Assembly (NCBI GenBank): GCA_019057815.1
Contig: JAHLWR010000021.1
Coordinates: forward strand, 1-64,000
DNA length: 64,000 nucleotides
Origin: Candidatus Heimdallarchaeota archaeon
GTDB taxonomy: Archaea; Asgardarchaeota; Heimdallarchaeia; Heimdallarchaeales; Heimdallarchaeaceae
Direction: 5' to 3'
The notes beneath the pieces are model-generated. The model saw only the letters and a list, made by a program, of their open reading frames with translations, searched no databases and was not told the DNA's origin. This document shows positions 3,091 through 8,899 of the stretch, one piece after another; position 1 is the first letter of the stretch, and every line of letters begins with the position of its first letter. The translations under genes and the position numbers were made by a program.

Positions 3091-4323
3091 TTAAGTAGTT
3101 ACCAATGGACCATTATTATATACTCCACACTGACCATTCTTGATTCTTTCTTCGATTCTAAATATTACACTATTTAATATCCAATCTTCATCATTTCGCC
3201 AATCCGAATCAATAGTATTAAAGTTATCAACGTAGAAGTGGTAATATATTCCTCTTCTACCAAAGAAATCTAATGAGTACAATTTGTAATCTGAGTAGGT
3301 TGACCAAATTAAGTAGTTGAAATTCGCATCATAGTATGCTGGTAGTTTTATGTTTAGAGCTACTGCATTATCAAGAACATTTATTGATATATTAAACGGT
3401 GGATTCTCTTCTTTAACTAAATAATATAGCTGGGCACCTTCTTTAGAAGATATATTATCAATAAAAAAAGTTCTATGCACGTAACTTTCATAAAATCTTC
3501 GTTCAAAATTCCATCTCGGAGCATATATAATATTCTCTTTTACAAAATTATATTGTTTACCGAAAGCTACCTTAATGGCATCATCAGAACGATTCGCAAA
3601 GAAACTCTCCAAATATGTGAGAAAAGGTTGTGGTAAGTAGTCATTCGCATCTTGAGGTGGGTTTGTTATAAAACCTTTATACCTTTCTATTAATTCTGCT
3701 TGAGGAGTTCTTACATTTCTTCCTATGTCCCGAATAAGAATCAACTGTAATGGTGTAATATTCTCTAGGTTTAAAGGAGTTTTTCTTCTTGGAAACCTTG
3801 TTGGTTTTTCAAGTCTTTTACTGATGAAGTTACCGATATCAAAAGGTTTCGGATCTTGTGTATGACCTGGAGCTGGTTCTGGATTCTCATGACGGTAACC
3901 TAAGGATCTATACGTTGAATATTCCTCACATATTTCTTGTTCAACTAAATAATCAAAGAATTTGAAGAGGAGACCATTACATTTCTGTGGTACGTCAAAC
4001 AAAGCATAACAACCAAAACTTTCTCCGTAAAATTGATTATAGTGACGAGTGTAAGGATGTTCTCTAAAAGCTACTTGTAAATTCGTCATTTGAGCTATAT
4101 TAGCTACTTTAAAGATAGCATGATAACGAGTAAGTGATAGGGTTTCTGGAGTGAATGTTGCAGTAGCTTTTTTTGTTATATTTCTTTCACAAAGTGAGTT
4201 GAACTTTCGTATAAACATCTGCTTAGACATACCTATTCTCTTTGCTAATGAAGAAAATGAATCAAGCGGATGGTTATTCAATGCATTCAATATTTTTCTT
4301 TCTAATAAGTTTAGACTATCCAT
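3091..4323 (-). CDS. Lrp/AsnC-like winged-HTH protein with a probable duplicated HTH-RAM unit
   Basis: N-terminal LERKILNALNNHPLDSFSSLAKRIGMS; second unit LQLILIRDIGRNVRTPQAELIE. Confidence 0.7.
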   Translation of the reverse strand: MDSLNLLERKILNALNNHPLDSFSSLAKRIGMSKQMFIRKFNSLCERNITKKATATFTPETLSLTRYHAIFKVANIAQMTNLQVAFREHPYTRHYNQFYGESFGCYALFDVPQKCNGLLFKFFDYLVEQEICEEYSTYRSLGYRHENPEPAPGHTQDPKPFDIGNFISKRLEKPTRFPRRKTPLNLENITPLQLILIRDIGRNVRTPQAELIERYKGFITNPPQDANDYLPQPFLTYLESFFANRSDDAIKVAFGKQYNFVKENIIYAPRWNFERRFYESYVHRTFFIDNISSKEGAQLYYLVKEENPPFNISINVLDNAVALNIKLPAYYDANFNYLIWSTYSDYKLYSLDFFGRRGIYYHFYVDNFNTIDSDWRNDEDWILNSVIFRIEERIKNGQCGVYNNGPLVTT

Positions 4324-4369
4324 TTTTTTCCCCTTTTAAATATTTGATTTTTCGAACAAACACCTGTTA

Positions 4370-4656
4370 AACATTAGGGAAACCGCCAGATGTTGCTCTG
4401 ATGGCTTCCCTAACGTTCTCTTGAGTGGGTGTTCATTAGACGATTCATGTCTAACCGTGATATTTTTTAAAAAATCCTAAAGCATATCCCCAATATACTT
4501 CTTGGATTCTTCTCGGATGGGTGTTAATCAGACGATTCTGATTAATATTAGTTTATGAAGCAAGATTCCCTCTAGGGATATTTTTCCCCCGATACTCCTA
4601 GAGGTAATTTGCTTTTTGAGTGGGTGTTCATTAGACGATTCTGTCTAATCGCGATA
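4370..4656 (-). repeat. Three-unit tandem array of structured repeats (putative ncRNA or leader)
   Basis: Conserved TGGGTGTT-AT-AGACGATTC core starting at 4426, 4518 and 4621, each adjacent to a 40-57-nt hairpin; G-U pairs form on the minus strand. Confidence 0.75.
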
Positions 4657-4661
4657 CTGGT

Positions 4662-5120
4662 TCAAGGAGATACAGAAACTGAAATTGGTGTATCTGGTTC
4701 TTCTTCTCCTGGTGGATCAAATAGTAAAGAATCACTATAATAGTCAAATTCTCCTATTCTGAAAATATATGCTTTGAGATTGAATATATAATCACCATTT
4801 TCAGGAGCACCGTTTATGAAACTGAATTTGAAAATTTCACCAGCTGTTACTGCACAGTAAAGATAATAACTTCTAAATACATATCCAGATGGCAAAACAA
4901 GCGAAAATAGTAATAATATTCGCGTATATTCCTCTCCTTTCAAATATATACTAGCCTCTGCATAAACGTCGTCTTCAATATTATCTCCGTCGAGATCTGT
5001 GTAATAAGCTGTTATAATTGAAAGTCCAGGTTTTTGAGCTACAGCACTCATAGTTGAACTCATTAACAGTGATAGTAGTATCCCACTTAATATAATACAT
5101 AATTTAAATTTTCTTTTCAT
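4662..5120 (-). CDS. Small secreted beta-rich protein with a DxDxD Ca-binding-like motif
   Basis: Signal peptide; DLDGDNIEDD. Confidence 0.7.
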   Translation of the reverse strand: MKRKFKLCIILSGILLSLLMSSTMSAVAQKPGLSIITAYYTDLDGDNIEDDVYAEASIYLKGEEYTRILLLFSLVLPSGYVFRSYYLYCAVTAGEIFKFSFINGAPENGDYIFNLKAYIFRIGEFDYYSDSLLFDPPGEEEPDTPISVSVSP

Positions 5121-5337: not shown

Positions 5338-6720
5338 TTAAAGATTCTTTAGAATTTCATCTATTCCATGTTCAATTCCTTGAAGATGCATGAAACCTCT
5401 GACAGTTTCTCTATATGTTATTTCCCCTGCTACAGGAGTTTGCATCAATCTTTCTACTTCATTAATGTCTCTTGTATGACCTAACACCCATATCAATTTG
5501 GTATAAGCTGCGGAAGGCAACATATTTCCTCCTTCAATCACTCCTCTGGCAAGCATATCTCTTCCCGTTTCATAAACTCGAAGTTGAATAAAACCAGTTA
5601 ATGGTTCAACAACCATTACAACAGGTATTTCTTCTTCTTGGCATCTTTCAAGAGCAGGGTAGACATCTGTACCTACATGACCTAACCCTGTTCCAATGAA
5701 AACTACTCCATGGTAACCCATGTCAACCATAGAATCAAGCATATCGGGATTTTGGCCTGGGTAAAAATATAATATCCCTACACGGTCATCAATTTTAACA
5801 TCCAGTTGAAAGTCTTCTACGGGTGTTCTTGGTTTTACATCCTTCTTAAACCAAGTTACACCTTCGTCATCTATTTTTCCGAGAGGTATATCACTCAGTG
5901 TTCTAAAAGTGTCTCTTCGTGATGAGTGCATTTTTCTACAACGAGTAGCACGATGAATTAGATTATAACTGTCACTTGTTCCACCGTGCATATTGATTAC
6001 AACTTCGGCAAAATTCTCATACCCTGCAAGTTGGGCAGAATATAGAATATTTCTAGCCCCATCTGATGAAGGTCGATCAGAGCTTCTTTGACTACCCACT
6101 AAAACAACTGGAACAGGTAAGTTTCTCAAGAAATAGGCTAAAGCAGCTCCTGTTACACACATGGTATCTGTTCCATGACCTATTATTACTCCATCTGCAC
6201 CGCTTTCAATTTCTTTTGCTATTGATTCTGCTGTCTTTACCCAATAATCAGGACGGAAATTTTCACTTAAAATTTCATAAAGTGTCTTGGGGGTTAGATT
6301 TACTATTGAAGATAGCTCTGGAACTGCAGAAAAAAGTTCTTCTGGTGTGAATGCAGGGATTACAGCTCCTGTTCTGTAATCCAATCTAGAAGCTACAGTA
6401 CCACCTGTGCCGAGAAGTGTTACATTAGGTAATTCTTCTTTAAATTCAACATCAATGTGAGGTAGTTTGTAATTTCCTTTTTGATATCCTATTTCTTCAA
6501 TTATAGTCGCATCATTAACTAATATTCCCAAATTGTAGCCTGTATCAACTTTTAGAGTAATATAATCATCATCTGTGTGTACGCTTCTAGGGAGTAGAAG
6601 ACCTTCATAGGTTGCGTTATCTTTTTTTACTTTTACTTTGCTCCATGTGCGGATATTTTCGCGTATTAATCTTTCTCTAAGTTCTCCTCTATATCCTTCA
6701 GGATCGTTGTTTTGGCTCAT
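5338..6720 (-). CDS. gatD: Glu-tRNA(Gln) amidotransferase subunit D
   Basis: TGGTVASRLDYRTGAV, HGTDTM, GSQRSSDRPSSD, RKMHSSRRDTF. Confidence 0.97.
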   Translation of the reverse strand: MSQNNDPEGYRGELRERLIRENIRTWSKVKVKKDNATYEGLLLPRSVHTDDDYITLKVDTGYNLGILVNDATIIEEIGYQKGNYKLPHIDVEFKEELPNVTLLGTGGTVASRLDYRTGAVIPAFTPEELFSAVPELSSIVNLTPKTLYEILSENFRPDYWVKTAESIAKEIESGADGVIIGHGTDTMCVTGAALAYFLRNLPVPVVLVGSQRSSDRPSSDGARNILYSAQLAGYENFAEVVINMHGGTSDSYNLIHRATRCRKMHSSRRDTFRTLSDIPLGKIDDEGVTWFKKDVKPRTPVEDFQLDVKIDDRVGILYFYPGQNPDMLDSMVDMGYHGVVFIGTGLGHVGTDVYPALERCQEEEIPVVMVVEPLTGFIQLRVYETGRDMLARGVIEGGNMLPSAAYTKLIWVLGHTRDINEVERLMQTPVAGEITYRETVRGFMHLQGIEHGIDEILKNL

Positions 6721-8668
6721 TTATACTACCTCGCTTTATTAAATCAATTACTTTTTCTGCAATATATTTCCCTTCCCGTGAGTAGTTGCTTTTTTCTAAA
6801 ACAAAACCAGTTATCTTAGTTACAGCTATTTTTTGGTTTATTTCATCAATTTTTAAAGATTCCAAATTATACTTGCTTAGAAATGAAAGTATAAATTCTT
6901 CTATTTCTTCATCTGAATGTTTAACCGATTTGATTTCATCTAAAATCTCTTCAAAAGATTTTTCAGGATTTTCAGCTGTTTTGTTAAGAACATTATTAAT
7001 TTGTTGTGCAATTAGAATCTTTTCCGATATTGCATTACCAATCTTTTCTAGCAGTTCATTAGACACTTCTAATCCTTTTCTTCTCCATTCTCTTGGAATA
7101 TTAATAAGAAGTCTATATGCGAGATGACCATTTATTCCCCGATTTTCAGTTAAAGAGTAAAATCTCTTTAGTTGCTCATCTCTAATTAGAAGATCAACTT
7201 TATTTTGAGTAAAATTGTATTTACTATTCAAATCATCGAAAACCTCCCATGGTCTTTTTCCTACCATTTTCTTGTATTCATTTATTTTTTCAAGGGAGAT
7301 TACAATTGGTGGTGTATCAGTATCAGGGTAAATTCTTTCCTTACCATGAATAACTCGTAGAAATTCCGTATTTCCATCTGGTAAGAGCCTTCTGGTCTCT
7401 TGAGGAACTCCATCTAGTGCCATCTTTACCCTTTCAACTATCTTCTTTAAAGCATGAATAGCTTTTCTCTCTGGTCCAGCAGTAATAATAAAAACATCAT
7501 TTGATTTAGGTTTTAGAATCGAACAGATTTGTTGGTATTTTTCATCATTGATATTAAAACTAGAAGGGTATTTTGAGCGTTTTCTTACTGCATTAGCTTC
7601 TAGTTCATCACTGTGAAATTGATTTTCTCGGTGTATTCCAGATATTAACATACTCTTATCAAAAATGTCAAGTCCAAAATCTTTGTTAGGTTGAACTTCA
7701 ACACCAAAGAGACCTTTCATATTAGGGAATACTGTTGCGAAGACCTTCTTCTCTCCAAACTCGAAAAGATGAGAAATATCAATATAGGTATGTTGAAAGT
7801 CTTCTTTCTTGATTCCTCTTTTGTGCATTTCATCCTTTATTTCTATAAGAGCGTGCTGACGCACGACTTCATGCCTACAAAACTTGTCAAACAATTTAAG
7901 ATCTTGAACACCTTTAATCTCAACACGATCACCTCCAGAAATGCTAATGTTAACGTCTTGACGAGCTGATCCTGAACCTCTACGACCTATACCGCTGAGT
8001 CGAAGAACACGTCCAATCTGCTTAGCTACCTCTAATAAATCTTCAGGAGTATTAATATCAAGGTGATCTGTAATAATTTCAGTTAAAGGAAAACCTAAGC
8101 GATCAAGATTAAAATAGACGGTTCTACTTGCTGTATCAGTCCAATTAACTCTTCTAGCAGCATCTTCTTCAATATATACATTAGAAATGCGAACCTTTCT
8201 ATCGTTAGCTAAAGGAACCCAACCATCACGACCAGAAATAAAGGTACGTTGGAAACCTGTAGTAATAGAACCATCAAGGTATTGCTTCCGATTAACTACC
8301 AATTCTTCAGCAAAAGCAGTACAATTAAAGTAAGCAGCAAGAATATAACCTTTCATAATAGCTTCTGGATCAGGACTGAAAGGCGGTGTTTCATCCATCT
8401 CATAAGTGCAAGTATTATGTTCACAAGCATAATAAATGACTTTGTAACCCTTCTCAAATTCAACTAACATACCAGGATCAAAATCGCCCATTTCTCCTAG
8501 TACGGGTCGGAAGTATCTGTAGAAACTATAATCCATATTTTCTGGGTCATCTTCTAAAATTAGTGGGCAATGGCAGAAAAGTTTTCTCTTCGATTTTATC
8601 TGATGGTGAACTTCAATTCCTGCTTGAAATCCTAGTTTTTCGAAGTTGAGGTTATTTGGGTCTAACAT
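6698..8668 (-). CDS. gatE: Glu-tRNA(Gln) amidotransferase subunit E (ATG 8668 preferred over 8779)
   Basis: GIEVHHQI, KLFCHCP, DGSITTGFQRT, LDRLGFPLTEI, RQDVNISI, GVPQETR, RIYPDTDTPP; overlaps gatD. Confidence 0.96.
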   Translation of the reverse strand: MLDPNNLNFEKLGFQAGIEVHHQIKSKRKLFCHCPLILEDDPENMDYSFYRYFRPVLGEMGDFDPGMLVEFEKGYKVIYYACEHNTCTYEMDETPPFSPDPEAIMKGYILAAYFNCTAFAEELVVNRKQYLDGSITTGFQRTFISGRDGWVPLANDRKVRISNVYIEEDAARRVNWTDTASRTVYFNLDRLGFPLTEIITDHLDINTPEDLLEVAKQIGRVLRLSGIGRRGSGSARQDVNISISGGDRVEIKGVQDLKLFDKFCRHEVVRQHALIEIKDEMHKRGIKKEDFQHTYIDISHLFEFGEKKVFATVFPNMKGLFGVEVQPNKDFGLDIFDKSMLISGIHRENQFHSDELEANAVRKRSKYPSSFNINDEKYQQICSILKPKSNDVFIITAGPERKAIHALKKIVERVKMALDGVPQETRRLLPDGNTEFLRVIHGKERIYPDTDTPPIVISLEKINEYKKMVGKRPWEVFDDLNSKYNFTQNKVDLLIRDEQLKRFYSLTENRGINGHLAYRLLINIPREWRRKGLEVSNELLEKIGNAISEKILIAQQINNVLNKTAENPEKSFEEILDEIKSVKHSDEEIEEFILSFLSKYNLESLKIDEINQKIAVTKITGFVLEKSNYSREGKYIAEKVIDLIKRGSINEPKQRS

Positions 8669-8899
8669 TTGACATTCAGACAGATAATAAAACATGTTAA
8701 AAACTTTCTTTCTTTGACAAAGAAAGAGAAAGTAGTTGATATTTACAGTTGAAATAACAGTGTAATTTAAGATTTTCAATCACGTATGGTGTGTGAGTTT
8801 TTACTCCTTCTTTCACAACTAGAGCAGGTTTAAAGCAGCATTTTTCAATGTCAAACTATTAGAAAATAATATAAGGAATAAAACTATATTATTAAACTA

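Follow-up and report, generated by a model that had tools for sequence, protein, structure and literature searches.

A candidate cis-acting intercistronic RNA of three tandem units between a secreted-protein gene and a double Lrp-like gene in a Heimdallarchaeota archaeon

To our knowledge, archaea have so far yielded few structured non-coding or cis-regulatory RNAs, and a full-text literature search found no report of one in the Heimdall group of the Asgard archaea, the closest known relatives of eukaryotes. Tandem glycine aptamers and the TRAP and HutP sites of Bacillus are repeated structured leader RNAs lying ahead of the regulated gene. Sponge RNAs of the CsrB/RsmZ type carry several hairpins with purine-rich, Shine-Dalgarno-like runs in their loops; we know of no CsrA-like protein in archaea. 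At the DNA level, archaeal Lrp operators of the Ss-LrpB type consist of palindromes a few helical turns apart. In ToxI/ToxN loci, short (about 34-36 nt), near-identical repeats lie with the gene of an endoribonuclease. Finally, internal-operon terminators (ioTTS) have been found in Methanococcus maripaludis, where they lower expression of the downstream gene (PMC10450193).

The locus described here lies on the minus strand of the window, that is, the whole 64,000-nt stretch analysed, whose positions are used throughout. Two co-oriented genes, one for a 152-aa protein (4662..5120) and one for a 410-aa protein (3091..4323), are separated by 338 nt between stop codon and ATG, and three tandem units span positions 4353-4655, with start-to-start distances of 103 and 92 nt. 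Like the archaeal ioTTS (PMC10450193), this array separates two genes of one probable operon that point the same way, has a U tract behind one of its hairpins and would be expected to give more upstream product and less downstream regulator. However, at about 300 nt it is far longer, consists of three duplicated modules with a sequence-conserved 5' part and has sister-genus homologues with covarying multi-helix folds. With tandem riboswitches and protein-binding leaders it shares repeated structured units on the sense strand, in which conserved unpaired bases stand beside stems kept in shape; unlike them, it has no Rfam match, its units are about 100 nt apart and it starts after a stop codon, not a promoter. 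Hairpins with purine-rich loop runs recall CsrB/RsmZ, but the G run is found in two of the three loops and the array is inside an operon instead of forming a separate gene. Three palindromes before an Lrp-like gene recall the Ss-LrpB operators, whereas here the half-sites and dyads are unconserved, the spacing is about 100 bp and the long hairpins bear an RNA-strand signature. Direct RNA-like repeats immediately upstream of a same-strand gene are also the layout of ToxI/ToxN, but the protein encoded at this locus is Lrp-like.

An earlier note on this DNA had described three units with periods of 92 and 103, each made of a short hairpin, a linker and a long hairpin, and all of these descriptive statements hold. 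The units share a 38-nt core (4417-4454, 4509-4546 and 4612-4649; copies 66-79% identical), and the 16-mer GTCTRAYNAACACCCA has exactly three matches against a chance expectation of 0.26; Tandem Repeats Finder reported no array. The borders had also been placed correctly: the upstream gene has its stop codon at 4662-4664, the conserved block begins at 4655, and about 46 nt lie between the end of long hairpin 3 and the ATG (4321-4323). The first conserved motif, AUCGCG (4650..4655), is found 6 nt past the stop codon. It reads AUCACG in the other arrays and in sister genera, and AUCACG occurs again ahead of unit 3 (4456-4461). By predicted folding, unit 1 then comprises short hairpin 1 (4630..4649; AUUAGAC/GUCUAAU, loop AGAAUC), the linker AACACCCA (4621..4628) and long hairpin 1 (4558..4614; loop CGGGGGAAAAAU). 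In unit 2 the order is repeated with short hairpin 2 (4524..4545; UUAAUCAGA/UCUGAUUAA, loop AUCG), whose stem register relative to the conserved GAAUCGUCU differs from that of hairpins 1 and 3, the same linker (4518..4525) and long hairpin 2 (4469..4512; loop UUGGGGA), which has many G.U pairs. The 3' arm of long hairpin 2 runs into a U6 tract (4469-4474) and is terminator-like in appearance; this tract reads UUUCUUUU in arrays of the type found at a second locus, on contig C39 (see below). Unit 3 consists of short hairpin 3 (4435..4455; GUUAGAC/GUCUAAU, loop AUGAAUC), the linker (4426..4433) and long hairpin 3 (4369..4418; loop GCAACA). Here the linker is predicted to serve as the 5' strand of a closing helix around long hairpin 3, whose 3' strand is GGUGUUUGUUC (4354..4364), without variation in six of six arrays. 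A downstream pairing had been proposed for this last unit, and it is present in the minimum-energy fold, where GAACA..CACC (4424-4434) pairs with GGUG..UGUUC (4354-4364). The G-run loops noted for two long hairpins are there as well (GGGGG in the first, GGGG in the second), and the bases of the proposed loop-linker pseudoknots do not vary among the arrays compared. A conserved A/U-rich stretch (4324..4353) with a Shine-Dalgarno-like GGGG run (4330-4333) precedes the ATG, and about 20 nt separate the end of the unit 3 fold from this ribosome-binding run. Coding potential was searched for within the array on both strands, and no credible ORF was found. As a separate observation, the last codons of the upstream gene (UCUCCUUGA, 4662-4670) can pair in the minimum-energy fold with the AAGGGGA run of the regulator gene (4327-4335); C39-type arrays are without this pairing, and their post-stop flank can pair with a GGUGUUUGUU segment instead.

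The element has the properties of a structured RNA encoded on the minus (sense) strand, not of an array of DNA palindromes. As minus-strand RNA, the whole 304-nt array has a folding energy of -100 kcal/mol, where dinucleotide shuffles give -61.6 +/- 5.2 (z -7.4); the plus strand reaches -92 kcal/mol (z -4.7). Minus-strand z values of the single units were -3.4, -4.2 and -8.1 for units 1, 2 and 3, respectively, and long hairpin 2 is absent from the plus-strand fold (z -1.6). Unit 1 is an exception, with the plus strand slightly better (-32.3 vs -27.8 kcal/mol on the minus strand). Several positions that are G-U on the minus strand and A-C on the plus strand had been taken to favour an RNA over a DNA operator. 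This reading is supported by the z scores, by the minus-only long hairpin 2 and by the wobble count, in which the bias holds: over all in-register stem positions of six arrays, counting mismatches too, the minus strand shows G.U at 20 and A.C at 7, the latter being G.U when read from the plus strand. At polymorphic positions, changes between Watson-Crick and G.U pairs number 14 vs 4 between Watson-Crick and A.C (p about 0.015). This G.U excess is a signature of selection on sense-strand RNA, not on duplex DNA. The six arrays derive from three or more assemblies, and 97.9% of the cells in their 86 predicted pairs are paired; shuffle controls were flat. The covariation set consisted of these six arrays, and protein clusters point to about 18 further near-identical loci. 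None of the 86 pairs has a compensatory double change within the genus, because the arrays are only 7-13% diverged. The structure of the window array therefore rests on thermodynamics, the wobble bias and homology.

Searches for known families support the view, already voiced in the earlier note, that the element belongs to no recognisable RNA family: none of the 4227 families of Rfam 15, described riboswitch classes included, matched the window array or seven related loci. The only ToxI match (18.3 bits, E 2.6) falls outside the array, in plus-strand orientation within a coding sequence (4682-4722), and ARAGORN detected no tRNA-like gene. A scan for intrinsic terminators and sigma-70 consensus sequences, which is not designed for archaea, gave nothing useful. 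H/ACA and C/D box RNAs, K-turns, BHB motifs and integron attC sites were dropped on inspection by eye, their pockets, boxes, bulges or core-site order being unfit. Fold-back of the array onto the ribosome-binding leader of the upstream gene found no support either: the best duplexes were inconsistent and four of five loci did no better than shuffles. On sequence grounds, the element is best read as an undescribed cis-acting intercistronic RNA.

The distribution of the element is narrow. BLASTN found the array only within its own genus (g1 below), and a covariance model of the 5' module (R1) matched both arrays of this genome, those of the genus's one other genome and a single seed unit from genus g5, with no further copy across 31 genomes of the family; viral contigs held no copies. 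In the same genome (3.7 Mb) there are six units in two arrays, one in the window and one on contig C39, both between the same kind of gene pair. A dispersed repeat of REP/MITE type, which would have scattered copies irrespective of neighbouring genes, is thus rejected: the copies are confined to two paralogous operons, and neither the genome nor the 31 family genomes show dispersal. One sequence resembling the unit core, ATCGTCTGTGAACCCCAC, occurs at contig C43:23758-23775 of genome G000 and C161:863-880 of G001, identical in both genomes of the genus, about 230 nt ahead of a thermosome-like gene, in its divergent promoter region. No hairpin goes with it, and its likeness to the core is probably due to chance.

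The upstream protein (152 aa) carries an N-terminal signal peptide and a C-terminal FDPPG motif, and no family was found for it in Pfam, NCBIfam or PADLOC. Its gene has a canonical TTTATATA box about 55 nt upstream of the start and a GGUGA Shine-Dalgarno sequence about 10 nt upstream. The downstream protein had been called double Lrp-like, and its AlphaFold2 model (pLDDT 84.5) confirms this, with two copies of an HTH plus RAM-like module fused in one chain. In Pfam this protein gives only weak HTH_24 and HTH_AsnC matches, but the top structural match of the model is NirDL, a fused siroheme decarboxylase (4ch7; E 3e-9, 397 aligned columns), and many Lrp/AsnC regulators match stretches of about 140 residues, about one Lrp monomer. 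The family to which it belongs is multi-copy throughout the class. PADLOC gave no defence or toxin match for either neighbouring protein, and there are no cas genes near the array. Elsewhere in the window, a NosD-like beta-helix protein is encoded on the plus strand (1390-2631) and an archaeal GatD/GatE amidotransferase pair on the minus strand (5338-8779); nothing links these genes to the array.

At the second array, on contig C39, the order is a gene for a 157-aa secreted protein, the array and a gene for a 403-aa double-Lrp paralogue. The two arrays are about 90% identical, whereas the flanking proteins are 41-46% identical and third codon positions, at 41-44%, are saturated. The regulators themselves are 43% identical overall, with many differences at the presumed recognition helix. 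In the protein tree, the window regulator is sister to a third paralogue without an array, and the C39 regulator branches as deep as the sister genus. Further arrays of both locus types are found in public metagenomes, and they cluster by locus type (91-98% identity within a type, 86-91% between types). Because the arrays are about 90% alike and the flanking genes saturated, the spacer must have been copied between operons as a cassette; from these sequence comparisons, a common ancestor of the spacers far younger than the gene duplication, and copying of an intergenic cassette from operon to operon, are robust conclusions. The copied segment ends at the stop codon of the upstream gene and at the start codon of the downstream gene, and the copying, putatively by gene conversion or replacement, took place shortly before these species split. 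Between close species, arrays are 91-93% identical vs 87-94% at third codon positions of orthologous genes; they diverge about as fast as these positions, and constraint on most of the array is thus mild. The 5' module is almost invariant across all 16 copies of the unit in g1. The surrounding C39 cluster (81732-85147) holds two double-Lrp paralogues, of 405 and 403 aa; the 405-aa paralogue is 53% identical to the window protein, has no array upstream and precedes the 157-aa gene.

Relatives of the element are found in sister genera. Orthologous gene pairs in the family have retained a long spacer, and in genera g3 and g5 the 5' module is present at the same syntenic spot, right after the stop codon of the small secreted protein. 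The g5 spacer holds a single unit, with AUUACG, a CUGAC/GUCAG hairpin whose loop ends in AAUC and an A-rich linker with ACC, followed by a long hairpin and a U tract. The g3 spacer opens with AUYACG, CUGAC...AAUC-GCCAG, an A run and CCCCACCCC, which head a multi-helix element of about 150 nt. A model of this g3 element (R2) found exactly one copy each in 18 of 25 g3 genomes, always at the double-Lrp locus, and no match elsewhere among 81 relatives. In its model-based alignment, 12 pairs and 47 cells have compensatory changes on both sides. The covariation score of 0.296 was reached by none of 500 shuffles (0.163 +/- 0.012), and slid-partner controls gave at most 0.13. Junction and loop bases are invariant while the stems covary; in one hairpin, the RAGGUC loop does not change over at least six different stem sequences. 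The syntenic position therefore holds a genuine structured RNA in g3. The g3 element and the window array share position, strand, AUYACG, a hairpin ending in AAUC, AUCGYC, an A run and a C run; unlike the array, the g3 element is single-copy and forms a multi-helix junction instead of three hairpin units. Neither R1 nor R2 finds the other's elements, so homology between the genera rests on the short module and on synteny. The short hairpin itself changes from UUAGAC/GUCUAA to CUGAC/GUCAG between genera with the AAUC of the loop kept, and in five g3 species the hairpin is absent and the flanking motifs are kept. The window array has the look of an opening module plus hairpin that was triplicated in this genus only. 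In a second clade, the two genes of this pair are only 72-78 nt apart; the pair is therefore probably an operon, and one that probably acquired its long folded spacer in the window's clade.

Altogether, the reading somewhat favoured here is that the spacer is a cis-acting intercistronic RNA of the operon for the secreted protein and the double-Lrp regulator, which would be transcribed, act in cis and be bound by a factor. The three modules would have arisen by tandem duplication and be read as minus-strand RNA. Their 5' third, constant in sequence (AUCACG, a short hairpin with AAUC in the loop, and an A-rich linker with a C run), is probably the recognition site for a trans factor, and the 3' two-thirds, the long hairpin, would be constrained mainly in shape. 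The hairpins may insulate the upstream message and make it more stable; some transcription may end at long hairpin 2 and its U tract; and the amount of regulator made may be set by the unit 3 fold, which is very stable and lies shortly before the ribosome-binding site. Near-invariant 5' modules call for a specific binding partner, for which the downstream 410-aa protein is an obvious candidate. On the other side, the A/T-rich sequence ahead of unit 3 may serve as a promoter, in which case short hairpin 3 would belong to the DNA and not to the transcript. The suggestion of a triple cis-regulatory element remains a fair description of the locus; the comparison with type III toxin-antitoxin systems and with known tandem riboswitches (no Rfam match) is not supported.

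A bolder version, to which only a rather small chance is given, takes the array for a new archaeal riboregulator whose units serve in binding or sensing, either as sites for an RNA-binding factor or as aptamers, on a portable cassette swapped between paralogous operons. In the first case, AUCACG-hairpin-CACCC on RNA would be the target of some factor, perhaps of the double-Lrp protein through its RAM domains, and with that protein this would amount to Lrp-family autoregulation through RNA; alternatively, three aptamers might sense a signal tied to the secreted protein. A narrow distribution, specificity for its locus, a modular build, the link it makes between a secreted protein and an Lrp-type regulator, and a sister-genus homologue with real covariation make the element a concrete candidate for experiment. 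Since it was copied between operons of long-diverged genes, the spacer behaves as a self-contained functional cassette. If the regulator or a small molecule binds it, it would represent a new way of controlling genes among the Asgard archaea; if nothing does, it would be a tidy example of operon punctuation.

Among the other explanations, it is rather doubtful that the array acts in trans, as a stable small RNA or multi-site sponge in the manner of CsrB/RsmZ, whole or as processed units, with the repeated 5' modules or the G-rich loops titrating a protein or pairing with other messages. The threefold presence of the same 33-38-nt module is what a multivalent binding RNA would have, two loops carry GGGG(G)A runs like the GGGG ribosome-binding run of the next gene, and copying of the whole cassette unchanged to a second operon would keep both operons under one trans factor. 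However, there is no recognisable promoter before unit 1 and no module-like target or further copy elsewhere in the genome. The long hairpin 1 loop was also considered as a mimic of the ribosome-binding site, and its likeness (11 of 12 bases) is judged, by our own rough estimate from the length and composition of the sequence, to be at chance level in A-rich sequence; the corresponding loop motif in g3 does not follow the changes in the g3 ribosome-binding site.

Control at the DNA level is unlikely. By this account the Lrp-like protein or another dimeric regulator would use the short palindromes as operators, the A/T-rich sequences ahead of units 2 and 3 would serve as TATA boxes, and the long hairpins would be incidental or mark the 5' ends or terminators of short transcripts. 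Autoregulation via several palindromic sites is common among Lrp-family regulators, every short hairpin is a near-perfect inverted repeat, an A/T-rich UUUUUUAAAAAAUAU lies just ahead of unit 3, and the spacings of 92 and 103 bp are near whole helical turns. Yet the fixed half-site geometry of an Lrp/AsnC operator array was not found: the half-sites vary (UUAAUCAGA in unit 2 vs UUAGAC in units 1 and 3), the dyad centre of unit 2 is about 2 nt off relative to the conserved GAAUCGUC, and the arms covary between genera. It is the loop that is conserved and not the arms, as the five g3 species that keep the flanking motifs without the hairpin also indicate. In C39-type arrays, unit 1 comes after coding sequence with no TATA-like box, and the regulators behind identical palindromes, 43% identical, differ in their presumed recognition helix. 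The minus-strand wobble bias of the long hairpins is likewise not expected from a DNA function.

It is also quite unlikely that the hairpins and U tract are passive punctuation, that is, ordinary internal-operon terminators or 3' stabilisers whose repeats arose by slippage or duplication. In an archaeon, terminators within operons that reduce expression of the downstream gene occur commonly (PMC10450193), hairpin and U-tract elements follow the small gene in g4 and g5 too, and divergence between species is near neutral. Against this, the 5' module is near-invariant in 16 of 16 g1 copies and its core motifs persist over three genera amid changed surroundings, and the invariant junction and loop bases and covarying stems of the g3 homologue exceed what a terminator needs. 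A processed array of type III toxin-antitoxin or CRISPR kind, with units cut out and held by the neighbouring protein (the toxin-antitoxin analogy being that of the earlier note), has the layout of direct RNA-like repeats just upstream of a same-strand gene in its favour and is very improbable, given units of 92-103 nt in which the repeat is limited to the 38-nt core of the 5' third (66-79% identity), 'variable' hairpins that are fixed between species and loci, a double Lrp/AsnC fold instead of a ToxN/AbiQ-type nuclease, the lack of PADLOC matches and of cas genes nearby, and a sole ToxI match that is weak and outside the array.

Some further features of the orthologous spacers were observed. 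At the g4 loci (L023 and L025, complete genomes) the spacer is about 200 nt long and is without the AUCACG/AAUCG module; it has a strong hairpin, with CGUCGCUCUCCCCC in its loop, and then a U-rich run. In g3 spacers (L009-L024, L032 and L062-L079), two or three copies of a CTTGTACAAG palindrome lie 3' of the covarying element. These copies can pair mutually as a long hairpin, and they may be operators or a further RNA stem. Gene callers add 30-70 codons upstream to the g3 orthologues P0003-P0011, extending them into the structured spacer and giving lengths of 437-475 aa; these extensions are probably annotation artefacts, because the indels found there are not multiples of three.
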